A DNA stretch of 18,812 bases. Origin: Nitrospirota bacterium (GTDB taxonomy: Bacteria; Nitrospirota; UBA9217). A program made the translations under genes and the position numbers. The notes beneath the pieces were generated by a model that did no database searches, had not been told where the DNA came from, and saw only the letters and a program-made list of their open reading frames with translations. This document shows positions 1,109 through 18,812 of the stretch, piece after piece. Each line of letters begins with the position of its first letter. The first letter of the stretch is position 1. The stretch lies in the NCBI GenBank assembly GCA_963741205.1, contig CAVUHW010000003.1, positions 1 through 18,812 on the forward strand, in the 5' to 3' direction.

Positions 1109-1179
1109 GAAGAAAGATAAAGCTCACCGGCGGCAATAGAGTAGATCGAAATTGCCGTCGGTGGAGCTTCTAGTCGGAC
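1109..1179 (-). mobile_element. Degenerate integron attC site
   Basis: - strand: R'' GTCCGAC, 5-nt spacer, L'' GCTCCACC, stem-loop, L' GGTGAGC, 6-nt spacer, decayed R' TTTCTTC. The opposite strand folds with one extrahelical G (1163/1164). Confidence 0.6.
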
Positions 1180-1897
1180 CTATCTCCGGTTAAACCGCCA
1201 CTGGTGCCGAAGTTCTGTTCACTACCGAGTAAGCGATATATCGATGCGCCAATGAGAGCACCAACAATTGGTGCCACCCAGAAAAGCCAAAGCTGTGAAA
1301 TCGCCCAATTGCCAACAAAGACGGCAACGGCCGTACTTCGCGCAGGATTCACTGACGTGTTTGTAACCGGTATGCTAATCAGATGGATGAGAGTCAGGCA
1401 CAAGCCAATTGCAATCGGCGCTAAACCTTGTGGCGCCCGTTTGTCAGTGGCGCCAAGAATGACAATGAGAAACATCATGGTCATGACCACTTCAGTTACG
1501 AGGGCAGCCAGTAAACTATACCCCCCGGTGAATGGGCACCGTAGCCGTTTGAAGCAAAACCTGCGGATAGCTCAAAGCCCGCCTTTCCACTGGCGATGAG
1601 ATACAGGACACCGCCTGCAACAACTCCCCCCAAGACCTGCGCAACGATGTAGGGCAGCAGTTCTCTGGCTGGAAAACGACCGCCGGCCCAGAGACCAAAC
1701 GATACTGCCGGATTTAGATGACAGCCTGATATGTGGCCGATGGCAAAGGCCATCGTGAGCACAGTCAGTCCAAATGCCAGTGCAACACCAAGAAGCCCGA
1801 TTCCAACATTTGGAAACGCAGCAGCTAAAACAGCACTACCGCACCCACCAAGAACCAGCCAGAAGGTTCCAATAAACTCTGCGCCATACTTGTTCAT
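1170..1897 (-). CDS. aqpZ: Aquaporin Z; one-base deletion in the C6 run at 1521-1526 splits it into two ORFs
   Basis: [33 protein letters not shown] and NTSVNPARS (two NPA boxes). Adding one G restores [27 protein letters not shown]. Confidence 0.95.
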
Positions 1898-5785: not shown

Positions 5786-6002
5786 TGAGCCTCCCCCGAT
5801 TTGATGAACATTCCGGAAAGTTTTAACGTCGTACAAGGAGGCCGGCATGGGAGGAAAGATAGGTCATCGTCAGTTTAGTAGGGAGTTTAAAAGAATGGCT
5901 CTTCAACTGGTGATGAGAAAAGGCGTTTCCATGGGGAAAGTAGCCCGGGATCTTGGTATTCATCCGAATTTGATTCAGCAGCCGGTGGTTTCTGCCACAT
6001 AA
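5786..6002 (+). pseudogene. IS3-family remnant: left end plus truncated OrfA (HTH)
   Basis: TG-initiated end TGAGCCTCCCCCG at 5786, RBS AAGGAGG, and ORF 5847-6002 MGGKIGHRQFSREFKRMALQLVMRKGVSMGKVARDLGIHPNLI. Cut off at about 5985. Confidence 0.75.
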
Positions 6003-6007
6003 CCGTC

Positions 6008-6039
6008 AAAAAAAAGACCTATTCAATCGTGAATAGGCC
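6008..6039 (-). terminator. Intrinsic terminator downstream of tRNA fragment copy 1
   Basis: - strand GGCCTATTCA-CGAT-TGAATAGGTC followed by T8. Confidence 0.8.
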
Positions 6040-6056
6040 ATTAACCCTTGATTTTA

Positions 6057-6104
6057 TGGTGCCCCTGGGGTGACTCGAACACCCGGCACGCGGTTTAGGA
6101 AACC
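6057..6104 (-). tRNA. 3' half of tRNA-Arg(CCT), att core, not a functional tRNA (copy 1)
   Basis: GGTTTCCTAAACCGCGTGCCGGGTGTTCGAGTCACCCCAGGGGCACCA: anticodon CCT, T-arm GTTCGA, CCA end. No D-arm or 5' acceptor strand. Confidence 0.85.
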
Positions 6105-6153
6105 TGATTCTCTCATGCAAATCGTTGATTTCTCATGCTGGAAGCCGGCCGAG

Positions 6154-6466
6154 TTAGTCGGCCAGGATGTCGGCTTCCCCGGTCGCCGAAATCGTCTTCC
6201 ACAGCGTTACCTCTTGGAGAGAAATCAGATAGGGTTGCTGGACAGCAATTTGATCCGCCAGCAACCCGGCGCGGCCGGTGAAGTCGGAAGCCAGGAGTTC
6301 GTTATAGGTAAGTTGGGTCGTAAGAATCGGATCTGTGAACGGCAAAAAAGTACAGTAAGATCTGTTCCCGCATCCATGTTCTGGGTCATGACGTCTACCA
6401 CGCGCTTGTCGCTGTCGGCTACCGCAGGCGAAATGGTCAAGCTGAGCGTGAGGATCGCGATTAACA
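6154..6466 (-). pseudogene. N-terminal fragment of a secreted endonuclease/exonuclease/phosphatase (EEP) family protein
   Basis: Signal-like LLIAILTLSLTISPAVA, then VMTQNMDAGTDL...DFTGRAGLLADQIAVQQPYLISLQEV. No start codon, frameshift at about 6345, and it ends next to the att arm. Confidence 0.6.
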
Positions 6467-6489
6467 GCTACGCGTCGACCTATCCCCAG

Positions 6490-7065
6490 TTAGTGTACCA
6501 AGTGGAGAGTTGTATTTTGGGCTTGAATTGCCTCTGGAGCCGGGCGTTCCACCAACAATCTGGCGCGCTCAAGAACCTCGGGTGATACGGCAGCCATATT
6601 GTCCATTACACTCGACATCTGAACATCTGGGGATGTATAGATGCGGCTGAAACCGGACTGCAGTTGCAAGTAGAACTCGGGGCGCTCTTCCGCCGGAATC
6701 CTCAGTAGCTCGGCGAAGGCATCGAGTGTCTCGCCGCGGCCCTGGGCGATATCACGGGCCAGATTGTCCATGTTGGCCGCCATAAATTCATTTACCTGAT
6801 CACTGCTTGCAAACTTCTTTGGCTTCTGGCATTCAGCCGAACCAGCAGTAATGCCAACAGTAGGTACGACAGACAACGGCGGGAAGAAATTTAAGAATGC
6901 TTGGACCGCCTGGAGCAGAGCTGAATCATTGGCGTTGTCCTTGAACAGCATCGTCCCGAGACCGCATCCCGTGTTGTTCTGTGCTGTTCCTGCGGACGCC
7001 ACACTATCAAGCATGATCGAAACTACTGCAGCTGTCAAAAAAACCGCGACGATAAGCTTTTTCAT
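6490..7065 (-). CDS. DUF3015-family exported protein
   Basis: Signal peptide, TGCGLG, GITAGSAEC, FMAANMDNLARDIAQGRGETLDAFAELL. RBS AAGGAGG before ATG 7065. Confidence 0.85.
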   Translation of the reverse strand: MKKLIVAVFLTAAVVSIMLDSVASAGTAQNNTGCGLGTMLFKDNANDSALLQAVQAFLNFFPPLSVVPTVGITAGSAECQKPKKFASSDQVNEFMAANMDNLARDIAQGRGETLDAFAELLRIPAEERPEFYLQLQSGFSRIYTSPDVQMSSVMDNMAAVSPEVLERARLLVERPAPEAIQAQNTTLHLVH

Positions 7066-7124
7066 ATACGCCTCCTTTGCATTGGATAACGATAAAGACA
7101 TTGAAGCAAGACTGACCGTAGTTG

Positions 7125-7192
7125 TAAAGCCATGCTTCCCGGACCGTGTGCGCATGTGAACCCATCTCACAAGGGGTTTGGCTTTATCGGGG
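7125..7192 (-). ncRNA. Possible decayed c-di-GMP-I (GEMM) riboswitch upstream of DUF3015
   Basis: CGATAAAGCCAAACCCCTT-GTGA-GATGGG resembles the GEMM 5' half with a GNRA loop. The expected GACGNAAAGC and P3 are poorly preserved. Confidence 0.25.
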
Positions 7193-7525
7193 TCTAACAA
7201 TTGACGGATACTGAGAAATTGATCAGTAAAATATAACACAAATCATAAGCGGGCATCGATAATTAATGAAGGTATTTTTAGGGGATTGCACAAAGTGGTA
7301 ATATGTAGCAGATGAAACTTTGATTATTGCGAAGAATTGAAACTCCAACATTCCAGGAAGACTCACGCGCTGAATGTGAAGATAGACGATATCGATACAC
7401 CGGGTTGATACTAATCCCCGGTCTGCGGTGTTACAACCGCGTTCCTCCATAATTTATTTAGTTGATATTATAGAGCATTTTTGCAATTTTTATGATTTCA
7501 TGGCAGTTTCTGCCACATTATTTCC

Positions 7526-7557
7526 AAAAAAAAGACCTATTCAATCGTGAATAGGCC
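7526..7557 (-). terminator. Intrinsic terminator downstream of tRNA fragment copy 2
   Basis: Same hairpin and T8 as 6008-6039. Confidence 0.8.
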
Positions 7558-7574
7558 TTAACTAATTGATTTTA

Positions 7575-7622
7575 TGGTGCCCCTGGGGTGACTCGAACAC
7601 CCGGCACGCGGTTTAGGAAACC
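7575..7622 (-). tRNA. 3' half of tRNA-Arg(CCT), att core (copy 2)
   Basis: 48 bp identical to 6057-6104; 5' half absent. Confidence 0.85.
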
Positions 7623-7821
7623 TGATCCTCTCACACAAATCATTGATTTCTCATGCTGGAATCTCGTGGGAACTGATGGAATTTATCGTTTTTTAGCGTA
7701 AAGATGGCAGAAAAGTGGCAGAAACATTTGTTACAATATTCTGCAGTGACGATATCTTTTTAGCAACCCATGAACGCATCATTCGAGCAGCTGGCGAAAT
7801 AACTTAACCCTTAACTTAAAT

Positions 7822-9152
7822 CAGTAGTGTCCGGTTATCGTTTTTCTAATGTGTGATAACTCACTGTCATACAAAGATAAAAAAGCCTATATGCAACTTT
7901 TCGATTTGAACTCAATTTATCCAGAATCATCTTATAATCCACCTCATCACTGCATGAGGGGGGACCAGGATGAATTCCGGGAAAACGATCTTCGCTCAAC
8001 TGATCGAGCATCTACCACGATACGAGTTCAATCAATGCGTCCTTCGTTACCAAGGCAATCACAAGGTCAGGAGTTTCTCGTGTACGGATCAGTTTCTCTG
8101 CATGGCCTTTGCTCAACTGACCTATCGAGAAAGCCTACGCGACATCATAACGTGCCTCAATTCCCATCGACCAAAGCTCTATCACATGGGATTCCGAGGG
8201 AAGATCGCAAAGTCCACGCTAGCAGACGCCAACGAGCTTCGGGACTTCCGCATTTATCAGGACTTCGGCTATATACTCATCGATATCGCCAGCAAACTCT
8301 ACCGGAACGAGGAGCTTGGCCTCGATCTGAAGCTCGCGGTCTATGCGTTGGACTCAACGGTTATCGATCTCTGCTTGTCCACATTCCCGTGGGCGACGTT
8401 TCGAAAAAAGAAAGCAGCCGTCAAGATTCACACTTTGCTCAACGTGCAGGGATCAATCCCGACCTTTATTTTCGTGACTCCCGGCAGCGTTCACGACGTC
8501 AATATGATGGATGCCGTTCCATTCGAAGCCGATTCGGTCTATACGATGGACCGCGCCTATCTCGATTTCGAGCGGCTCTATCATATCAATCAGCTTTCGG
8601 CGTTCTTCGTTATTCGAAGCAAACACAACACCAGATTGCGCCGCATCTATTCCGCATCAGTGGACAAAACCATCGGCGTACAAGCCGATCAGACAGTTCT
8701 GCTCGTCGGCTACAAATCGCGTATGGCCTATCCCGATCCTTTGCGCCGGGTGCGTTATCACGATGCCGAACGAGACAAGCGTCTGGTGTTTCTAACGAAC
8801 AACTTCTTACTCCCAGCCAAAACGGTCGCCGATATTTATCGATCCCGATGGCAGGTCGAGCTGTTCTTCAAATGGATCAAGCAGCATCTTCGCATCAAGT
8901 CGTTCTTTGGAACATCACCCAATGCGGTCAAGACTCAAATCTGGACTGCGGTGAGTGTTTATCTGCTCGTGGCGATTGTCAAGAAGCGATTAAACCTTCC
9001 CGGCAGTCTCCATACGATTCTACAGATTTTGGAGGTCAACCTTTTCGAGAAAATACCCATTTCTCAGCTGGTTAACGAAACAATCAATCACGAAAACGAA
9101 CATCGTGATGATAACCAATTGAATCTATTTACGTAACAACCGGACAGGACTG
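7822..9152 (+). mobile_element. Complete IS4-family insertion sequence, 1331 bp
   Basis: IRL CAGTAGTGTCCGGTT versus IRR reverse complement CAGTCCTGTCCGGTT (13/15 identical). 9-bp target duplication AACTTAAAT at 7813-7821 and 9153-9161. Confidence 0.95.
7970..9136 (+). CDS. IS4-family DDE transposase (DUF4372 N-terminus)
   Basis: MNSGKTIFAQL...FAQLTYRESLRDI, ALDSTVI, MDRAY, and YRSRWQVELFFKWIKQHL (YREK motif). Confidence 0.96.
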   Translation: MNSGKTIFAQLIEHLPRYEFNQCVLRYQGNHKVRSFSCTDQFLCMAFAQLTYRESLRDIITCLNSHRPKLYHMGFRGKIAKSTLADANELRDFRIYQDFGYILIDIASKLYRNEELGLDLKLAVYALDSTVIDLCLSTFPWATFRKKKAAVKIHTLLNVQGSIPTFIFVTPGSVHDVNMMDAVPFEADSVYTMDRAYLDFERLYHINQLSAFFVIRSKHNTRLRRIYSASVDKTIGVQADQTVLLVGYKSRMAYPDPLRRVRYHDAERDKRLVFLTNNFLLPAKTVADIYRSRWQVELFFKWIKQHLRIKSFFGTSPNAVKTQIWTAVSVYLLVAIVKKRLNLPGSLHTILQILEVNLFEKIPISQLVNETINHENEHRDDNQLNLFT

Positions 9153-9421
9153 AACTTAAATCAGAAATGATCAGAAATAGCTGATTGAATCTGCAACCTG
9201 CACCTACTACTTTCACGTCCGGCACTACGATTGGCAAAGTGTGAAATACCAGTTTTGAAGTCAACAGAAGTATTCACTTTTTGTTTAATTTGCTCGACTT
9301 TATTGAACTGTGCATTGGAACAGCAAGCTCAGCTTTGCGAAGCAGCCGGCTGCAGGCTGGGCGAGCTGACTGCATAGAAAGGCACCATGGCACAACCATT
9401 CCAGAATTGGAATGCATTATT

Positions 9422-10168
9422 TCATGGTGCCTTGAAAATTTCCCCAACAGGACATCTCCACGGAATGAACATCGGGACCATGTTTTGATAGTGACGATAG
9501 CTCTCGCCAAATTCAGCAACAAGATCCTTCTCCTCAAGGCAAGAACCGAGAACGATCCAGAATGTCCAGAGCAAATTGAAGAGTAAGCGGTCTAAACTCA
9601 AGGAGGGAGTTGCCCAGATGAAAACCAACATGAAGAAATACAGTGGGTGACGAACCCAGAGATAGGGGCCTCGAACAACCAAGTGCGGCGCCTGCTGCTT
9701 GTTATTCAAGTGCGTTAAAATGGAGAGCCGGCCAAAGGGATCAAATTCTCCAAGCGTCCGAACGCCCCACACAAAACCGGCAACGGCAAAGAGGAAGGCG
9801 GCACGAAACGGTATCCGCAAAAGCCCCTGGACCTCAAAGAGAGTCGTGTGCGATGGCTTCCATAGAAGCACCACGGCTGTGAGGACTGTGCCGGATGCGA
9901 TTGCATACGTTGCTGAGTAGTAGTGGGCGGGTATAATGGACGAAAACCAGGTACGAAATGACGATCTTATCACCCCGCTATGCTGAAGGAAGAACACTGC
10001 GGACAGGAACCCGTCCCATAGCAACGCCTGCGGTTCCGAGATGTTCAAGTGGATAACGGTAAAAGGCCCGGCGATCAGGAAAGCACCGAAGATTAGCAAC
10101 GAGCCACCGCCAGAAAGAGTGGCTAGGACGATTACCAAATAAGCTGCAAATCGATTCGCTGACTGCAT
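9422..10168 (-). CDS. Membrane methyltransferase, isoprenylcysteine carboxyl MT superfamily (MddA/Nurim-like)
   Basis: FFLQHSG, GPYLWVRHPLY, WATP, LEEKDLVAEFGESYRHYQNMVPMFIP; multiple TM helices. Confidence 0.85.
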   Translation of the reverse strand: MQSANRFAAYLVIVLATLSGGGSLLIFGAFLIAGPFTVIHLNISEPQALLWDGFLSAVFFLQHSGVIRSSFRTWFSSIIPAHYYSATYAIASGTVLTAVVLLWKPSHTTLFEVQGLLRIPFRAAFLFAVAGFVWGVRTLGEFDPFGRLSILTHLNNKQQAPHLVVRGPYLWVRHPLYFFMLVFIWATPSLSLDRLLFNLLWTFWIVLGSCLEEKDLVAEFGESYRHYQNMVPMFIPWRCPVGEIFKAP

Positions 10169-10300
10169 CAGTCTGTCCTTACGTGGCCCAATGTGGTAAT
10201 GGGGGCAGCTTTCACGGCCCCTCTCGACCGTGGATGAAGGCCGTCCTTCTGCATTAGCTGGTTCGGCTTGTCCTGATACCAGTCGTAGGTGAGACTGCTG

Positions 10301-10837
10301 TTAGTTCGTCTTTCCCTGACTGCATGACACAATAGTTCCTGATCGGTACTCAAGCACTCGAATCACACTGGTTACTTCAAGCGATATAGTACAAGGGAGT
10401 TGAAACGACGGAATAACATTCATGATGCCATCAACTTCCATACCAGGGATAATCTTACACGTAGCAGATTCTATACAGTCCTCGGCGGTCTTTACAGCAG
10501 CACCACAGCCCAGTACTATAACAGCGTCGAACCCCGATGCGCGTTTTTTTAGGTCTTGCCGGCGTCCTGATGTCCACATGCAAACAACGAAGTGATGAGG
10601 CAGCCTGCTGTAAAATACTTCTGCTTTGATGCCGGCATGCTCCAGGCGGGATTTCAATTCCTTAATATACGATTCATATGCTTCGGTTTTTAGAAATCTG
10701 CTAAATAGCTGTATGAAAGGTTTCTTCTCTCTCACAGAGAGACTGGCAGCCGGGCAGAATCTGCAAGGTACAATCAGAGCAGAATGAACATTAGAGATGT
10801 CAGCAGATATATCACGATCTTTAAGAGAGAATGGCAT
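10301..10837 (-). CDS. Cys-rich hypothetical protein, resembling the N-terminal domain of MetV/MTHFR-C-like proteins
   Basis: IVPCRFCPAAS...VVCM...DAVIVLGCGAA. RBS GGAGG before ATG 10837. Confidence 0.6.
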   Translation of the reverse strand: MPFSLKDRDISADISNVHSALIVPCRFCPAASLSVREKKPFIQLFSRFLKTEAYESYIKELKSRLEHAGIKAEVFYSRLPHHFVVCMWTSGRRQDLKKRASGFDAVIVLGCGAAVKTAEDCIESATCKIIPGMEVDGIMNVIPSFQLPCTISLEVTSVIRVLEYRSGTIVSCSQGKTN

Positions 10838-11010
10838 TTGCAATACCTCCTCATACCGCCCGTATTAGGTGGCGGTTGCGCGTTCTTTCTCCTTAATCAT
10901 TACTGCCCGGGCATAACCACCTCCGTTTGTTTCGAATCACGCTTCTTTCTGATCCTATAGACGAAACGAAGAAGGGTGCAACGTGCCGGATGTTCATATA
11001 CCTGCTCTAT

Positions 11011-11583
11011 TCAGCTGCAACCGCAACCCGATTCTGTTGCTGGCCTCGGTGCAGCGCCCGGGACGGCAGCCCTACATCCCGTCTCCGTCGCGGACACAGC
11101 GGCTAGCACTGGCTCTTTTCCCAATTCTGCCAGGACGATGTTCGCCACTTTTCGCGCCGTCTCTCTGCGTTCTGTTTCCGGGACGGAATCAATATCAAAG
11201 AGGTCGGTATACTTCCCGTAAAGAGAAAGGGCATCGAACTGGACCAGGTTCTCTTTCCCGACCAGATTTTCAAGGATCCTGCCGTGACACCTGAGAAAAC
11301 ATCCGTCTATGAGCACGATTTTCTCCGCCTTCTTGATCCACTGCGCCAATGCCGATTGGGGTACGGAGAAAAGTTCCCCGTGGCAACCCCGTCGGTACGG
11401 CTCCTCCTTGGCTACGAGGTTTGCGGCAAGACGCGCGATCTCTCCTCGTATGCACGCCCCTTCGCAGGACAGGACCGGAATTTTCCCTTCTTTAAGATTT
11501 CTGGATCCGGCTATTTCTCCCGTTGGACAGCTCTTGCTGGTTCTTGAAACCTCAAGGGTGAAACTATTGATTAACTCTTTCAT
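11011..11583 (-). CDS. DGC-domain putative zinc-binding protein
   Basis: VLSCEGACIRGEIARLAA...GCH...VLIDGCFLRCH; C-terminal GCGCS; RBS GAGGAGG. Confidence 0.85.
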   Translation of the reverse strand: MKELINSFTLEVSRTSKSCPTGEIAGSRNLKEGKIPVLSCEGACIRGEIARLAANLVAKEEPYRRGCHGELFSVPQSALAQWIKKAEKIVLIDGCFLRCHGRILENLVGKENLVQFDALSLYGKYTDLFDIDSVPETERRETARKVANIVLAELGKEPVLAAVSATETGCRAAVPGAAPRPATESGCGCS

Positions 11584-11800
11584 TTTTCTCCTCCTCAGGC
11601 CCGGTATCCTTTGTTGTTGGCGCACAACAGGATTGGCTTTTCATTTTCTTGATCATGCCGTTCATTATGGTTGAGCAGTCAGGAAAGTCTCCTTCACCTG
11701 AGCAGCATTTTCCCATCATATCCAACATCCCGGACCTCATTGGACCCGAACCTTCCGATTTCGTCTTGTCTTCCTTCTTGTTTGATTCTTCAGCAGTCAT
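11564..11800 (-). CDS. Small Cys/Met-rich hypothetical protein (78 aa)
   Basis: RBS AAGGAGG; MLDMMGKCC...PDCSTIMNGM...SCC; overlaps the start of the DGC gene. Confidence 0.7.
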   Translation of the reverse strand: MTAEESNKKEDKTKSEGSGPMRSGMLDMMGKCCSGEGDFPDCSTIMNGMIKKMKSQSCCAPTTKDTGPEEEKNERVNQ

Positions 11801-11834
11801 TTCAGTTATCCTCCTTGCGATTTTTAGCCGACTA

Positions 11835-12095
11835 TTATGTGCGCCCCGCAATGCCTTTTTTTTTCTCTTCATACTCCTGCTTATTAATCTCTCCCTGATC
11901 ATTCTTTCTGTCCAGAATATCGGAAGGACGATCGGATGTACTTTCGCCGTGGCTGCCCGATCTGCCGAAACCCGGGCCGCACATCATCGAACCCGCATGT
12001 CCTCTCATCATGAAGATGCAAAGAACCATCATTGCGATCATAATGATCGGAAATATCCACCAATATCCGTAGCCAAAAGCTAAACACGGAAACAT
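11835..12095 (-). CDS. Single-TM SHOCT-domain protein
   Basis: WWIFPIIMIAMMVLCIFMM TM segment; DILDRKNDQGEINKQEYEEKKK SHOCT-like tail; RBS AGGAGGTG. Confidence 0.78.
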   Translation of the reverse strand: MFPCLAFGYGYWWIFPIIMIAMMVLCIFMMRGHAGSMMCGPGFGRSGSHGESTSDRPSDILDRKNDQGEINKQEYEEKKKGIAGRT

Positions 12096-12117
12096 ATGCC
12101 TCACCTCCTTTCGACCA

Positions 12118-12148
12118 TATAGACGAAGGGAGGGAGAAAAAAGATACA
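12118..12148 (-). promoter_or_regulatory. Putative ECF-type promoter
   Basis: TGTATC-N17-CGTCTA on the - strand, directly after the sigma gene. The 10-mer TTCGTCTATA recurs at 10956-10965. Confidence 0.4.
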
Positions 12149-12150
12149 TC

Positions 12151-12756
12151 TTATTTTTTGAGGAATTTTAGAGGAGTGGTCTTGCGGTCGCAGGAGAGTT
12201 CGTTTCGTTCATCGCGGTAGAAATTGCATTTCGCTTCAAGTGCCTTTCTGAGCTTCATCCTCGCGCGGTGCAGCCTGATCTTTACCGTGTCCAGAGATAT
12301 GCCGATGACTTCGGCAATTTCCGAATTCGTCAAACCTTCGAATTCACTCAAAACGAGCACGGTGCTGTAGTCGTCAGGAAGGCTGTCAACAACGCCCCGA
12401 ATACAATCATTCATGTCCTTCCGGATCAGCAGTGTATCGAGGAAAGGCGTGTTGTCGATGGGCCCGGCATCTTCATCTCCCGGAACATCTTTTTCTTCCG
12501 TGGGTCGCACTGATCGCTTCGAGGAGGGCCTGCGGAGATGATCCATTGCGGTGTTTGTTGCAATCCGGTAGATCCATGTGGACAGACTGGATTCACCACG
12601 AAAGCTGTCAAGCGAGTGATCTATTTTTACGAACGTTTCCTGAGCCGCGTCTTCTGCCTCTAACTCGCCAATCAGCCTTGTGAGATATCTGACGATCTTC
12701 GGATAATACTCATCGTATATTGTAGAAAATTCCTGTTTACTAAAAGACATGGTCAT
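12151..12756 (-). CDS. ECF sigma-70 factor with a two-Cys C-terminal extension
   Basis: AEDAAQETF, SLSTWIYRIATNTAMDHLR, EIAEVIGISLDTVKIRLHRARMKL, then CNFYRDERNELSCDRK. The true start may be ATG 12750. Confidence 0.93.
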   Translation of the reverse strand: MTMSFSKQEFSTIYDEYYPKIVRYLTRLIGELEAEDAAQETFVKIDHSLDSFRGESSLSTWIYRIATNTAMDHLRRPSSKRSVRPTEEKDVPGDEDAGPIDNTPFLDTLLIRKDMNDCIRGVVDSLPDDYSTVLVLSEFEGLTNSEIAEVIGISLDTVKIRLHRARMKLRKALEAKCNFYRDERNELSCDRKTTPLKFLKK

Positions 12757-13045
12757 CCTCTATTTATGCATTTGCAATATCATAACGCTTTGCTTTGTTT
12801 TTCGCCAGTGGGTATTGTCTAAAAGTTGATGATCGCGGCTCTGGGCATGCCGTGCGTGCTGCCAAACGATTCAATAGGTCTTCTGCGCTGAGATTGCGGG
12901 ACAGCTCGGTCGTCTTCCTGAGGAAGTTTTCAAGTATCTCCCCCGCTTCGATGAAGAGGACTTCGAGTAGCGTAATCCGGCAGCGTTCAAATTGCCGGGC
13001 AGAGGGGAGTTGCGAGGCAGGTTCATCAGATCGTCCGGGCCGGCA

Positions 13046-13069
13046 AGGGCGGCCCAAAATGGCCGCCCT
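13046..13069 (-). terminator. GC-rich hairpin after the oxidoreductase operon
   Basis: AGGGCGGCC-6 nt-GGCCGCCCT; no U-tract. Confidence 0.4.
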
Positions 13070-13093
13070 CACAGACACGGGAAAGGTTAACTC

Positions 13094-15685
13094 TTAATGC
13101 CCCGCCTTCAACTCCGCGGGAGGAAGCTTCTCCACTTTCACCTCGGGATGCATCTCCCGGTGTTTGTCGCCCGTGTACGCATACCGAAGGGTCTCCTTGA
13201 AGAACTCGAAGTGCTTCGCGTTGTCAAACATGACGTCGCCGAACTTGTCCCCGGGCTTTGCCGGAGCGACGGATGCGACGGTGTCGTACCAGCCCTGCGA
13301 GCCGCCGATCGGGTCCGCGGAGACCGGGATCACATAGTTCGGGTTCACCCCTTCGGCCTTCCACCAGATGTTCTTCAGGTCCGGCTCCTCCACACCGCCC
13401 CACATCGGCATGGGAGCGTCCTTGTCAGCCATGGCGACCCTGCCGAATTTCATCCCCAGGGTGTTGGAAACCGCCACGACGCGGGGGTGGATTCCCTCGG
13501 TGACCTTCGCGTAGGTCACCATATATCCCACGGGGGTCGTAATCCTGATCAGGTCTCCGTCCTTGATCCCGAGCTTTTCGGCGGTATCGGGATTGAGCCA
13601 GGCGGGATTCTTGTGCACGATCTCATTCATCCATTTCAGATTGGCCGTCCTGCTCTGCACATGGACGTTCCACTTGAAGGTGGTCAGGATCATCTGGTCG
13701 TCCTTGAGTTTTGAAGAGCCGTTCTTCTCCCAGTGCCACGGGTGCGCTTTGAACGTCGGAAGCGGGCTGAACCCGTATTTCTCGTAATTCGAAACATAGA
13801 TGTTGATCTTCCCGTCCGGCGTGCCGAAACCCTTGCGCTTCTTGCCGCCCACGGTTACCTTACCGTTCGGGTCTTCCTTCATGTAAAGGCCGTACTCCGG
13901 CTTGATCAGTTTGCCGTCCTTGCCCATGATCTTCCCGGTCGCGGGATCGAGGGTGCCGTATACGGGCCAGACGCCGTTCTTCTTGAGAAAGTCGTAGCCG
14001 CCCGCTTCCTTGAGGCCGGGAATGTTCTCGAACTGTCTGCGGAGATAATCCTCGCCGTCCTTGAACTCCCAGTACTGCCGCATGCCCTTCTTGCCGTCAG
14101 GGTCCACTTTGTGGATGATCATCTTGAGGATTTCCCTGAACTCGATCGCCTCTCCGAGGGGCTTCACGACAGGCTGCCTGATGCCGACCCACGGCCACAG
14201 GCTCGACGGCATGCTCTCGGGATCGTGCCGTTCGAGGTAGCTGCAGTCCGGCAGGACGAGGTCCATCAGCACGGTGGTCTCGTTCATCTGGTTCGAGAAG
14301 GTAACGCTGAAGGGGATGAGCTTTTCGTCCAGCAGCACTTCCCGCCAGTAGCTCGCGGCAGGGTTGGTGAACGCCTCGCAGGACATGTAGTTGAAATACA
14401 TCCCGATCTTCTGCTTTCCCTCCTTGATCCAGAAAGGCGTCAAGTGGCTCACCTTGTGGGCGCCAGGGGATAATCGGGCGGCGTGGAAAGGTAGCTCGGC
14501 TCCTTGGCCTTCGGGGGCGTGGGCTGGGGCTGGTCATAGCCCATGCCTCTCGGCAGGCAGTAGCCGCCCTTTACCTCGATGTTTCCCGTGATGATGGGAA
14601 GGAGCATCGTGCACCGCTCGTTGTAGGAGCCGTACAGGTGCTTGCACGGCCCCCGGTAGGTGTAGGTCGTCGCCGGCCGGACGCTTCCGAACTCGATGGC
14701 GATCCTCCTGATGTCCTTTGCCGGGACCCCGGAATATTTCTCCGCCATCTCGGGAGTGAACTGCTTCAAATGCTCTTCGAGCTTGTCCGCGGGATAGTTC
14801 GTCCAGGTGTTGATGAAGTCCCTGTCCGCAAGCCCTTCCTGCATGATGACATTAGCCATGGCGAGGGCCACGATGCCGTCCGTGCCCGGGAAGAGCGGGA
14901 GCCACTCGTCGCTCTTCGCGGCGGTATTGGAGAGCCGCACGTCAAAGGTGACGAGCTTCGCCTTTCCGTCCACGAGCGCCGTCCATGATCCGCTGCGAGT
15001 AGGGGTTCATGAAGTACCCGGCCTCGAGGATGTTGCTCCCGAAGTTGAGGATGTACTTGCTGTTCTCAAAGTCAGGGGTCTCGATGTCCGGCCCCCACGT
15101 GGGCTCCATGCCGATCTTCTTGGAAGCTTCGCAGGTGGATGTGTGGTTTACGATCGTGTTGGAGCCGAGGGTCGCCATGAACCGTTCGGCCGCGCCCCCG
15201 GAGCGGTTCCTGCCCCACTTCATCATGATCTCATTCGGATGCCCGCTGTCCTCGATCGCAGTGATCTTTGCGGCCACTTCTGCGATCGCCTCGTCCCAGG
15301 AGACCCGCTTCCACTTCCCGCTTCCCCGCGGCCCGGTCCTTTTCAGGGGATAGAGTATCCTGTCCGGATCGTAGATATGCCCGATGCCCGAATTGCCTTT
15401 TGCGCAGAGCCTTCCGCGCGTGGACACATGCTTGTCGTTACCTTCGAGCTTCTTCACCCTCCCGTTCTTGACAAAGGCGAGGCCACCGTCCTCGATGTTG
15501 CAAACGAGGCAGGTGTAGGGAACAATCTTGTCCCATTCCTCGCCGCTCACCTTGTCGTCCTTCACATGCACGCCCCGTCCGCCGAGTTCGGGTTCTCCCG
15601 CCTCGGCGAAATTGCTCATCCCGCCGGCGGCAACTGCGCCGGCCGCCATCCCCAGCTTCATAAAACTTCTTCGTGTGATATCCAT
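13094..15685 (-). CDS. DMSO-reductase-family Mo/W-bisPGD catalytic subunit (Psr/Phs/Arr/Arx-like), Tat-exported; indels at about 14460 and 14980
   Basis: TRRSFMK signal, CLVCNIED...GRLCAKG, RILYPLKR, NHTSTCE, PGTDG, DLVLPDCSYLER, and C-terminal WLNPDTAEKLGIKDGD. The three ORFs join by single-base corrections. Confidence 0.92.
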
Positions 15686-15697
15686 GGCTAGCGCCTC

Positions 15698-16452
15698 CTA
15701 TAGATATTGGGTGAGAATGCCCTTCTCGAAGTCCTGGGGATCCACCTGCCTGTTGCCCCTGATCGAGTCTATCTGGTGGCCTTCCGCGCCGATGTAGTAC
15801 ACTAGGCCGTCAGCGCACAGCTTTTTCGTCGGGTTCGAGGCGATGAGCTTTGAAACCACGCTGTCCGGGTCCGAAAGATCTCCGAAAACCCTCGCCCTCG
15901 GGATGCAGGTCTGGACGCAGGCCGGGACAAGCCCTTTTTCCACCCGATGGACGCAGAAAGTGCATTTCTCGGGAAATCCGGTGATGGGGTTCACGAAGAT
16001 CGCCTCAACCGGGCAGGCGGATATGACGAGGTCAGCCTCCGCCTTGATCTGGGCCGGCGTCTTCCCCTGTAATTTCTTGTAGTCGAAGACGACGATGCCG
16101 TCCTCCCTCCTGGAGAAGCTTCCGAGTCCCGCGCCCTGAGAGGCCTCGGCGCAGTTTCCGCAGTGGTTGCAGATCCACTGGAAGAAATACCGCTTCGCGT
16201 GGGGATACTTGCCCTTCTCGTAGGTCCTGATGTGGGTCCGCCACACGCCGAGGGGCACCTCGTTTTCCGCCTTGCAGCCGACGGTGCAGGCATGGCACCC
16301 GATGCATCTCCTCACGTCCATCACCATCGCCCAGCGTGGTTTTTTCGGCGTCTCGCCTGGACCGCGCCGGCGGAAGCGACAAGCGCGGCCCCCGCTGCCG
16401 CGGATAGTGTGAGGAATTCCTTCCTCGTCAGCTCTTTTTTGTCTTCACTCAT
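15698..16452 (-). CDS. PsrB/NrfC/TtrB-like Fe-S subunit with a Tat-like leader, 12 motif Cys; frameshift at about 16354
   Basis: MSEDKKELTRKEFLTLSAAAGAA joins to ETPKKPRWAMVMDVRRCIGCHACTVGC; also KCTFC...PACVQTC...FGDL. RBS AAGGAGG. Confidence 0.9.
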
Positions 16453-16511
16453 GGTTTTCCTCCTTCTCGGTCTGGAAGTCCGTTGAGCACGTCCTTCGCC
16501 AGGCTGTTCGC

Positions 16512-17146
16512 TCATCTTCCATGTAAGGTGCCGAGATGTTCTTTCTCTGTTTCCAGGAACCGTACGGTCAGGGAACCCAGCGTCTTGTAAAAGGGATGAA
16601 AGGCCAGTCTCTCAAGATCCCGCAGAAAAGCGAATGCCCACGACTGATATGGCTTTGAAAAAACTCCCTCTGTAATCCGAACCATTTCGCGGCCTCTTTT
16701 TCGTCCCCGTTCCTCCGCGCATCCCCCTCCTTCCCGGCCAGGTACCCCATGAATTCGAGCTCCATGCCGATATGGTCCGGCAGCATGCGGCTTTCCTCCT
16801 TGACCACAAGTCCGCAGCGCCGGTAAAATTCTTCCACCTCCCAGGAGGGTTTCTGGTTCAGCATGCCGTGCAGACGAACGGACTCGTAGGGAGGAATGCC
16901 GCCCGGCACGATGAACAACGCCGCGTATTCTTCGGCAAGATCGTTCAGCAGGATGTCTTGAGGTGTGTCGGGCAGCGCTCGGCCCAGGTCTATGCCAAGT
17001 TCCTGGAGCGCGTCCGCGGCCGCTTCGCTTTTCAATATGGCGAGGAACTCCGTTGTTACCTCTTTCAGGTAGGCCGCGGCGAGGAGATGGTAAACGCCGC
17101 TTCTGCCTTTTGTTATGCCTGAACTTTCCACTTTCTTTTCAAGCAT
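16512..17146 (-). CDS. TorD/DmsD-family molybdoenzyme chaperone; frameshift at about 16641
   Basis: EYAALF...PPYESV...PDHIGMELEFM. The corrected tail reads HISRWAFAFLRDLERLAFHPFYKTLGSLTVRFLETE. Confidence 0.9.
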
Positions 17147-17511
17147 GGTTCCTCCTGAAGTTTACAAATCAGGAGCCCGTCCTTTCCGCCCATAATAATA
17201 CTTTGGGGCAGAACCTGGGCAGTTATTAGCTAGAAGGAATAAAGAAGGACAATAAAATAAAGGCTATCACCGGGCACATGGTTGTCAAGTGAGATGCTGG
17301 GATGCGAGGTTATATTGAAATGGCAATTGGCGGCACGTCGACATGAGCGTGCAGAAAGGGTCGCTTTTTTTATCCCCCGATCTGCGACATCGAAGGAGTT
17401 GGCAGGATGGACTGAGGAACCGCCCTCCAAAGCACGCGGGTCGCTGAACAAAATCGCTGAAGGCTTTATTCTGATCCATCGATAAATTCGATGATGTGAT
17501 TTTCATAAAAT

Positions 17512-18587
17512 CTATCCCAGCTTCCCGAAGGGACAGACCGGGTACCTGCACACGTCGCATTTCATACACAGACCCCCATGGCCGAGAGCTCAACCTCTTT
17601 CCGTCCGATTTTCTCATTGGCAAGAACACGGGGTAGGATCAGATCGAAGATCGTGGTTTTCGCGTACATGCCGCAGGCGGGGATGCCGATTATCGGAATG
17701 GAATCGAGATAGGCGATAAGGAACATGGCTCCGGCAGAACGGCAGAGCCATAAGTATATCCGCAGCGCCGAGTTCCCTGATCGCGAACCGCGTTACGTCA
17801 TCGGGATCAACGGACATTCCTCCCGTGGTGATCAACAGATCAGCCCCGGCATTCAACAATTCCCGGAGCCTGTCTACGATGAAAGCCTTATCGTCCGGCG
17901 CGAAGTAGACCCCGCCAGCTCCCCACCGACTTCTTCTATTTTTTTCGTAATGACCGGTGCGAATGCGTCCTTGATCCTGCCGTGATAGACTTCATTCCCG
18001 GTTATAACGACGCCCACACGCGGTTTGCGAATCTCCCTCACCGCAATGATACCGGCCTGACGCGAGTGACGAGCAGTTTCCCCGATTCGAACAGCCTGGT
18101 CAACCACATCCTTCTTTACTACCAGAGGTATTGCCCTGGTGCCCGCGACTGTCCGGCCTTTTTTCACGACGGTATTGTCATGGAGTGTTGCGCACATGAC
18201 CTCGCCGAGCATATTGAACTCAAGGAGGGCCTCCCGGTCTATCTTGAGCAGTCCGTCCCGCTCGGCGACGATGTTGATCTTCCCCTCCTTCGGCTCGCCC
18301 TTGATCGCTACGCCATCGCCTAGGAGCGCCCTGGCGAGAGCGTATGCTGCGTCGTTTTCGTGCATTTCGTCATCAGCGACCTGAAGCACGAAGAGGTGTT
18401 CCTTGCCGAGCCGCTGAAGGTGACACAGGTCTTCTTCTTTGATGATATGCCCTTTTTTGAACGCACGACCTTTGAACTCTCCGGGACGTATCTCCGTAAT
18501 GTCGTGAGCGAGTACTGTCCCCACGGCCTGGCTGACGGGTATTGCCTTCATGGTGGAACCATGGTTTTCATGCGCGTCATCACACAT
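17512..18587 (-). CDS. MoeA-like molybdopterin-binding protein with a C-terminal Cys cluster; four apparent one-base deletions (about 17912, 17755, 17732, 17590)
   Basis: AVGTVLAHDITEI, TGNEV, TTGGMSVDPDDVT, restored YGSAVLPGAMF...GIPACG and GHGGLCMKCDVCRYPVCPFGK. Confidence 0.88.
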
Positions 18588-18810
18588 GGGACCCTCCCTT
18601 GAATATCGTCCTGAAACGTTCATCAACGAACTCTTGAATGCCTTTTTCCAACGCTTCGTATTTCTTCAAAAACTCGCGAGCGTCATTGGTGAGAATTGCA
18701 CCGCCGCCGTTCTTGCCCCCGGTCTGCCGCTCCACTAGCTTGACGCCCAGCCGGTCCTCCATCGCTTTTATATGGCTCCATGCCTTGCGAAAGGAGATAT
18801 CGACTTCCTG
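18580..18810 (-). CDS. modE: ModE-family winged-helix regulator, HTH only, 5'-truncated by the window edge
   Basis: ISFRKAWSHIKAMEDRLGVKLVERQTGGKNGGGAILT; stops with no Mop/TOBE domain. Confidence 0.85.
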   Translation of the reverse strand, partial: QEVDISFRKAWSHIKAMEDRLGVKLVERQTGGKNGGGAILTNDAREFLKKYEALEKGIQEFVDERFRTIFKGGSHV

Positions 18811-18812
18811 CG

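Follow-up and report, generated by a model that had tools for sequence, protein, structure and literature searches.

Loss of the FS4 ligands in the iron–sulphur subunit of a Psr/Phs/Ttr-like enzyme encoded without a membrane anchor gene in a Nitrospirota bacterium

Four-cluster iron–sulphur subunits are the standard wire of a large enzyme superfamily, and FS4, the cluster adjoining haem bP of the membrane anchor, is their contact with that anchor. An operon from a Nitrospirota bacterium raises the question of what kind of enzyme remains when the ligands of FS4 and the gene for the anchor are both absent. The operon lies in the 18,812-nucleotide stretch of DNA analysed here (the window), which is the entire contig C3 of a 50-contig metagenome-assembled genome that is 84% complete. 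It is encoded on the minus strand in the order chaperone, iron–sulphur subunit (B) and catalytic subunit (A), and the enzyme belongs to the Psr/Phs/Ttr-like group. It is probably a soluble, Tat-exported periplasmic Mo/W-bisPGD oxidoreductase, in which B would carry FS1, FS2 and FS3 and a c-type cytochrome would replace the NrfD/PsrC anchor as redox partner. The features of the operon are, in window coordinates:

16568..17146, minus strand: TorD/NarJ-type chaperone gene, first in the operon (Pfam Nitrate_red_del, 1.5e-27)
16318..16453, minus strand: signal peptide of subunit B, Tat-like with the motif T-R-K-E-F-L; its frame differs from that of the mature part (translation)
15698..16327, minus strand: mature Fe-S subunit B, a 209-aa ORF with 12 ligand Cys (Pfam Fer4_11, 8.7e-20)
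16013..16171, minus strand: stretch of B from Cys53 to Cys105, comprising group II minus its fourth Cys and the replaced group III
16139-16141, minus strand: Ser63 codon of B
14942..15685, minus strand: piece 1 of subunit A (Pfam Molybdop_Fe4S4, Molybdopterin and TAT_signal)
15488-15511, minus strand: FS0 motif C59-x2-C62-x3-D66...C94 in piece 1 of A (alignment to 14 relatives and PsrA)
15131-15133, minus strand: candidate Mo-ligand Cys185 in piece 1 of A (alignment to 14 relatives and PsrA)
14449..14973, minus strand: piece 2 of subunit A; a 1-bp insertion near 14977 breaks the frame between it and piece 1
13094..14452, minus strand: piece 3 of subunit A (Molydop_binding domain); a 1-bp deletion near 14459 breaks the frame between it and piece 2

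The gene for A starts 16 bp downstream of B. On the 3' side of A (10301-12756, minus strand) there are an ECF sigma factor gene (12151-12756) and small Cys-rich ORFs; a DGC-domain protein gene (11011-11625) and a 180-aa protein without a family match are also found downstream of A. The genes at 10301-12756 showed no conservation beside the operon among the relatives compared. A DDE transposase gene (DUF4372 and DDE_Tnp_1) occupies 7970-9136 on the plus strand, with near-identical copies on contigs C32 and C14. The window also contains a 157-bp direct repeat (5988-6143 and 7506-7661) to which sequences on C34 and C40 are related.

Groups I (Cys 8, 11, 14 and 18) and IV (Cys 122, 125, 137 and 141) of subunit B are complete. 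Group II contains Cys 53, 56 and 59 within CNHCGNCAEAS, with Ser63 at the place of the fourth Cys. The group III region reads KKLQGKTPAQIKAEADLVISACP, where YKKLQGKTPAQIKAEADLVISACP stands in place of the CxxCxxC motif and the sole Cys left is the last one (Cys105, in ...ISACP); Cys171 is one additional Cys. Over the replaced stretch, no Cys codon occurs in the other two frames of the coding strand. The preliminary description of this DNA had reported this state of the four groups and the lack of hidden Cys codons, and the Cys positions bear it out, the absence of hidden Cys codons holding for those two frames. It had further claimed that exactly the four ligands of FS4 are lost, with which two alignments agree. 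In a phmmer alignment of B with PsrB (2vpw_B, E 4.5e-32), the fourth Cys of group II and the group III CxxCxxC of PsrB face the lost positions. Residues 46-160 of B match residues 177-282 of NarH, for which the excerpted ligand table of PMC5338063 gives 184/187/192/227 as FS3 ligands and includes 196/217/223 among those of FS4. By that table, Cys53/56/59/105 of B correspond to the FS3 ligands, and Ser63 together with the replaced stretch to the FS4 ligands. The preliminary description had overlooked the out-of-frame signal peptide of B and the division of the A gene into three pieces.

With 12 ligand Cys, B falls outside the PsrB/DmsB/NarH-type four-cluster subunits, which have 16 (or 15) Cys in four groups, and it is predicted to bind three clusters. 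Its double-ferredoxin fold is that of the group, as seen from the Fer4_11 domain and the match to PsrB, and its gene adjoins that of a Mo/W-bisPGD subunit. The AlphaFold2 model of B has a mean pLDDT of 92.6, and Foldseek returned PsrB (2vpw_B) as its top match (TM 0.73/0.78, 38% identity), followed by ArrB and then by the beta subunits of Desulfovibrio soluble formate dehydrogenases and of transhydroxylase. The insert is modelled as a helix (residues 91-104), which would occupy the place of the former group III motif. The preliminary description had suggested the Lys-containing insert as a possible docking site for a soluble electron partner; Lys85, however, is also present at that position in many 16-Cys relatives.

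Had the nearest homologues kept 16 Cys, the altered pattern could have been taken for a lesion of a single strain. They do not: among the best 120 of 2191 homologue clusters with E <= 0.001, the FS4 ligands are absent in 83 (P0001-P0083, 47-96% identity). These clusters lack the group III motif and have no Cys at the fourth position of group II, where Ser predominates and Ala or Thr is occasional, and their full-length members contain 11-14 Cys; the other 37 (P0084-P0120) keep 16 Cys. The loss of the ligands is not due to chance, since so many of the best clusters carry the same loss, and judged from these sequences it is a family trait rather than a lesion. Ser63 is invariant across a 23-sequence family alignment, and in family alignments neither a Cys nor any invariant residue was found in the insert. 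In a profile search of 1.84 billion representatives, the core of the family came down to no more than two or three clusters at 50% identity, namely P0036, P0065 and possibly P0121, below which the score falls sharply, to 16-Cys proteins. The FS4 ligands are also absent in six of 147 representatives checked (P0121, P0143, P0165, P0254, P0259 and P0264), which are TtrB-like proteins without family assignment.

Whether the loss of FS4 goes together with the absence of an anchor gene was addressed in 163 classified loci, of which 80 came from genomes and 81 from metagenomes and a relative's genome, with the window and its second copy making up the rest; at least four of the 163 rows duplicate the same contigs (L010 = L104 = L108, L012 = L107 and L009 = L102). 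NrfD genes were sought with a profile and a transmembrane filter; an unfiltered iteration drifted onto Fe-S proteins (296 matches) and was discarded. Three-cluster B subunits were found in 33 loci, and the remaining 130 all have at least 15 Cys. Subunit A is visible in 28 of the 33, and in all 28 it starts at most 120 bp from B, the two genes standing in the order B-A without an intervening NrfD gene. Nor was an NrfD gene found within 1 kb of B in any of the 11 three-cluster loci that are flanked by 3 kb or more on both sides. In the 16-Cys relatives with at least 1.5 kb downstream, by contrast, an NrfD gene lies at most 400 bp from B in the order B-C-A in 104 of 105; the exception, L070, has the order B-A and a Cys-type FS0. 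In these loci, FS4 loss tracks the absence of the anchor gene, as had been proposed from the window by itself. An NrfD gene does occur 1.35 or 3.2 kb upstream in four of the 33 three-cluster loci. It always belongs to a distinct module that includes a 16-18-Cys Fe-S protein, and the enzyme may therefore be linked indirectly to an NrfD module. In the genome of the window, eight NrfD matches are spread over five contigs, with none on C3 or on C32, the contig that carries the second copy.

The association has few independent events behind it. When the trait columns were left out, the B tree (148 rows) placed all 27 distinct three-cluster B sequences in a single clade (SH-like support 99, stem 0.38). 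On the A tree, the three-cluster state needs four changes. The locus L082 encodes a 15-Cys B together with an NrfD protein, and its A subunit falls within those of the three-cluster family. Independent pairs on this tree agree in four of four cases that FS4 loss goes with anchor loss (p 0.125). Both are unrooted FastTree trees without AU tests. The association is perfect in counts, but as it comes down to a single event in the B tree and at most four in the A tree, it has no statistical weight. In the anchored B subunits encoded at L082 9932-10657 and L069 8179-8901, group I is short of its fourth Cys (CIGCMACVLADK and CIGCMACVCADK, respectively), an FS2 ligand in NarH numbering. L069 had appeared to encode a 12-Cys B beside an NrfD gene, but this was rejected as a wrong-frame ORF; the real B has at least 15 Cys.

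Both subunits carry export signals, as A has a normal R-R Tat signal beside that of B. Subunit A begins with MDITRRSFMKLG, which scores 21.6 bits against Pfam TAT_signal, slightly below the cut-off of 22.7, and all 15 aligned A subunits share the Tat motif. In intact relatives of B, which are 247-256 aa long (P0001-P0020), the signal peptide is in frame with the mature part; its motif there is S/T-R-K-E/D-F-L without twin arginines, and R-R is found in P0020 only. The FS0 motif of A is C-x2-C-x3-D, with Asp at the place of the third Cys of PsrA in all 15 aligned family members and in all 28 family loci in which A is visible. The preliminary description had raised the question of whether this Asp co-varies with the loss of FS4, which is not the case: the same Asp, as CNIED or CNIQD, occurs in 68 NrfD-anchored loci with a 16-Cys B. 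In a FastTree phylogeny of 95 A subunits, the Asp-type sequences form one clade of 66 rows (support 96), which holds both anchored and anchorless enzymes. For these two reasons the FS0 Asp is older than the loss of FS4 and not coupled to it, and the two unusual traits of the family can be separated. The anchored set with the FS0 Asp and the order B-NrfD-A (L045, L053, L116 and 65 further loci) comes from Beta- and Gammaproteobacteria, e.g. Aromatoleum, Hydrogenophaga and Sedimenticola, and none of these enzymes reaches a named NCBIfam family.

The name given to proteins of this family by JGI, 'tetrathionate reductase subunit B', is a mis-annotation. TtrB (NF011569) is the best NCBIfam model for B, yet the score of 135 bits is below the cut-off of 416, and the NrfD-type TtrC gene that lies between B and A in TtrBCA is found neither in the window nor in any of 28 family loci. 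Other named families are also not reached. Against PhsA/PsrA (NF012032, cut-off 694 bits), pieces of A from the window score 142.8 and 92 and intact relatives 312-333; against ArrA (NF041714, cut-off 1600), intact relatives score 163-180; against ArrB (NF041715, cut-off 450), the score is 104; and against FDH3_beta (NF038355, cut-off 240), B scores 52.6. The likeness of B to FDH3_beta subunits is one of design, not of descent.

PsrABC of Thermus thermophilus (2vpw) provides the best sequence match of A and the best sequence and fold match of B. As in the present family, its B subunit has the ferredoxin-type fold, and its A subunit has a Tat signal and a Cys in the position of the Mo ligand. 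PsrB, however, has 16 Cys and four clusters and is seated on the NrfD-type anchor PsrC, whereas the window family is without FS4 and without an anchor gene, has the order B-A and has Asp rather than Cys as third FS0 ligand. ArrAB of Shewanella ANA-3 (6cz7), the second-best match of both A and B, belongs to the same wider group; it is a periplasmic AB enzyme without an anchor and is fed by CymA, a cytochrome of the NapC/NirT family. It differs in its gene order (A-B) and in that ArrB is named as a four-cluster (4Fe-4S ferredoxin) protein, so the loss of an anchor does not force the loss of FS4.

The Ttr-like and 'Unk' enzymes resemble the window family in that B precedes A, and the 16-Cys B-NrfD-A relatives share with it the FS0 Asp and the A clade. 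The excerpted text of one survey describes a Ttr-like 'Unk' clade with the order B-C-A or B-A, including an anchorless subgroup that has a 60-kDa B and an A without a Tat signal (Duval et al., 2008; PMC2500031). The window family differs from the B-C-A enzymes in having neither the C gene nor the FS4 ligands, and the subgroup as described in that text (60-kDa B, no Tat signal on A) sets the family apart from it.

Two further enzymes bear comparison. FdhAB of Desulfovibrio (6sdr, 1h0h) has one cluster in A and three in B, and donates its electrons to soluble cytochromes c. It likewise consists of two subunits without a membrane anchor, and its beta subunits are the third and fourth fold matches of B, but they are only 24-25% identical to B and the catalytic subunit is of another family. 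The excerpted text of PMC9774666 gives a total of four [4Fe-4S] clusters for FdhAB. The beta subunit of pyrogallol-phloroglucinol transhydroxylase (4v4c_B) also matches B in fold (TM 0.67, 24% identity). This subunit is related to the four-cluster proteins but has three clusters and no anchor; the enzyme is cytoplasmic and its beta subunit has an extra C-terminal domain. We know of no redox partner of this transhydroxylase. Three clusters without an anchor and with a cytochrome partner are a design already known from the soluble formate dehydrogenases, and the present enzyme would be a variant of that design. Our literature searches found no paper describing a three-cluster Psr/Ttr-like B subunit or the FS0 Asp.

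The neighbours of the operon in other members of the family suggest what the partner may be. Outside the subclade of the window, genes for c554-like tetrahaem and/or NapC/NirT cytochromes occur in 13 of 22 family loci, and most of the others have short flanks. The usual order there is chaperone, double-ferredoxin/FlpD protein, c554, NapC, B and A. Seven family loci are flanked by 6 kb or more on both sides (two of them being one contig), and in six of these an ORF with at least three CxxCH motifs was found within 6 kb, as against eight of 60 other loci; this enrichment is a lead and not a test, as kin are not independent. A rhodanese gene lies 3' of A in one contig. In the c554-linked subclade, the chaperone gene adjoins that of a conserved double-ferredoxin protein (about 370-420 aa; one example also has an FlpD/MvhD-like domain), which may be a maturation or electron-transfer factor. 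It is encoded at:

L010, 7062-8324: double-ferredoxin protein
L011, 14234-15394: double-ferredoxin protein
L012, 1417-2631 and 8753-9871: double-ferredoxin protein

The subclade of the window comprises 11 loci, in which B has its own signal peptide. None of the 11 has a c554 or NapC homologue, and tblastn found none in the window's 84%-complete genome. Just upstream of the operon, L097 and L099 have a gene cluster for a tetrahaem cytochrome, an Fe-S protein, an NrfD-CBS protein, a Rieske protein, a cytochrome b and a pentahaem cytochrome; L098 has an octahaem cytochrome as neighbour, and an 896-aa cytochrome with 12 CxxCH motifs lies 4.8 kb from the copy on C32. No cytochrome was found in the available flanks of L094-L096 (5-10 kb on either side). 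A gene for an FmdE-domain protein with a DksA/TraR zinc finger is found beside the operon on C32 (13344-13976, L089) and in L096 (13294-14007).

Together with the synteny of B and A, the enrichment in cytochrome c genes supports the earlier proposal of a putative three-cluster wire that matches the missing anchor and serves a soluble partner. Electrons would pass between the Mo-bisPGD and a c-type cytochrome by way of FS0 (three Cys and an Asp), FS1, FS2 and FS3, in that order from the Mo site. For B relatives without a signal peptide, the partner genes would mostly be those of the c554-like tetrahaem protein and the NapC/NirT-type membrane cytochrome. For the subclade of the window, conserved synteny offers no partner, and the candidates are the 12-CxxCH cytochrome on C32 and the five- and eight-haem cytochromes beside close relatives.

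The same neighbours allow another reading of the direction of electron flow, which is unlikely though it is the strongest of the alternatives: the enzyme would be a dehydrogenase and not a terminal reductase, passing electrons through the cytochromes to the quinone pool, as in the series hydroxylamine oxidoreductase, c554 and cM552. In ammonia oxidisers, a pair of c554 and NapC/NirT-type proteins carries electrons from a periplasmic oxidase to quinone, and the gene pair beside many of the relatives matches Nitrosomonas c554 (CycA; 302 bits against an NCBIfam cut-off of 400) and the NapC/NirT family. Proteins of the NapC/NirT family, however, more often pass electrons from quinol to periplasmic reductases, and the closest named families of A are reductases, namely PhsA, followed by a DMSO/selenate-family reductase and ArrA.

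A further alternative is that the operon is a decaying pseudogene in this organism, with the altered Cys pattern as part of the decay. A four-way DNA alignment revealed four 1-bp indels that are specific to the window: near 16642, a deletion that shortens the chaperone (192 aa, versus 195-239 aa in relatives); near 16350, a deletion that puts the signal of B out of frame; and the two that split A. A second, syntenic copy on C32 (L089, L090) matches window positions 6159-18812 at about 91% identity, with 61 gaps in 5.6 kb, and carries different indels, including a 53-bp deletion. Transposase genes are near, and searches of 14 other genomes from the genus and 24 from the family did not find the gene. 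The Cys pattern, however, is common to intact relatives at 73-96% identity. Between the two copies, B and the three pieces of A have a dN/dS of 0.03-0.08 (dS 0.15-0.5), so both lineages have been under strong constraint and the frameshifts in the operon are, on this comparison, most likely assembly errors. Other genes are split as well, in line with a general rate of indel errors: a MIP-family channel gene (1170-1897, minus strand) and a MoeA-like gene (17285-18626, minus strand) are each in several ORFs, and the NrfD genes on C8 and C18 look split. Such errors are not everywhere, as rpoB on C13 is intact. Decay of the operon is accordingly very unlikely.

Identity between the two copies rises to 97.8% over window positions 9198-10914 and to 99% over the transposase (7825-9162), and the pair is therefore a mosaic; it could stem from two strains that were binned together or from a recent duplication. 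Each of 12 public sequencing runs contained 5-7% of the sampled words, and none of the 12 is the source sample. The G+C content of C3 and C32 is below that of the large contigs; together with the nearby transposases and the absence from the 14 same-genus genomes, this makes a recent acquisition, or mis-binning, possible.

The least probable alternative, to which we give very little credence, is that B keeps a fourth cluster or docks on an NrfD-type anchor encoded elsewhere, as an ordinary membrane-bound three-subunit complex: the eight NrfD matches in the genome, the invariant Ser63 and the NrfD genes within 3.2 kb in four of 33 family loci would fit it, but the insert, without Cys or other invariant residue, is confidently modelled as a helix, A directly follows B in 28 of 28 loci where anchored relatives place the NrfD gene between them, and the nearby NrfD genes accompany Fe-S subunits of their own.

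The preferred reading remains a soluble periplasmic enzyme with a probable cytochrome partner. Beyond it, we suggest tentatively, as a possibility that we hold with considerable doubt, that the family is a new clade in which FS4 and NrfD were removed as a unit and replaced by a c554/NapC-NirT-type relay, the electron-entry end being an exchangeable cassette. Catalytic subunits that are close relatives can be combined with either module, as the A subunit of L082 is nested within the family although its locus encodes a 15-Cys B and an NrfD protein. The joint loss of FS4 and the anchor gene, with cytochromes as neighbours, provides a clean comparative case for rewiring between quinol-coupled and cytochrome-coupled enzymes. 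If the tentative cassette reading is true, the presence of a c554-type relay may point to members that, in the manner of hydroxylamine oxidoreductase, oxidise a substrate in the periplasm and pass the electrons to the quinone pool.
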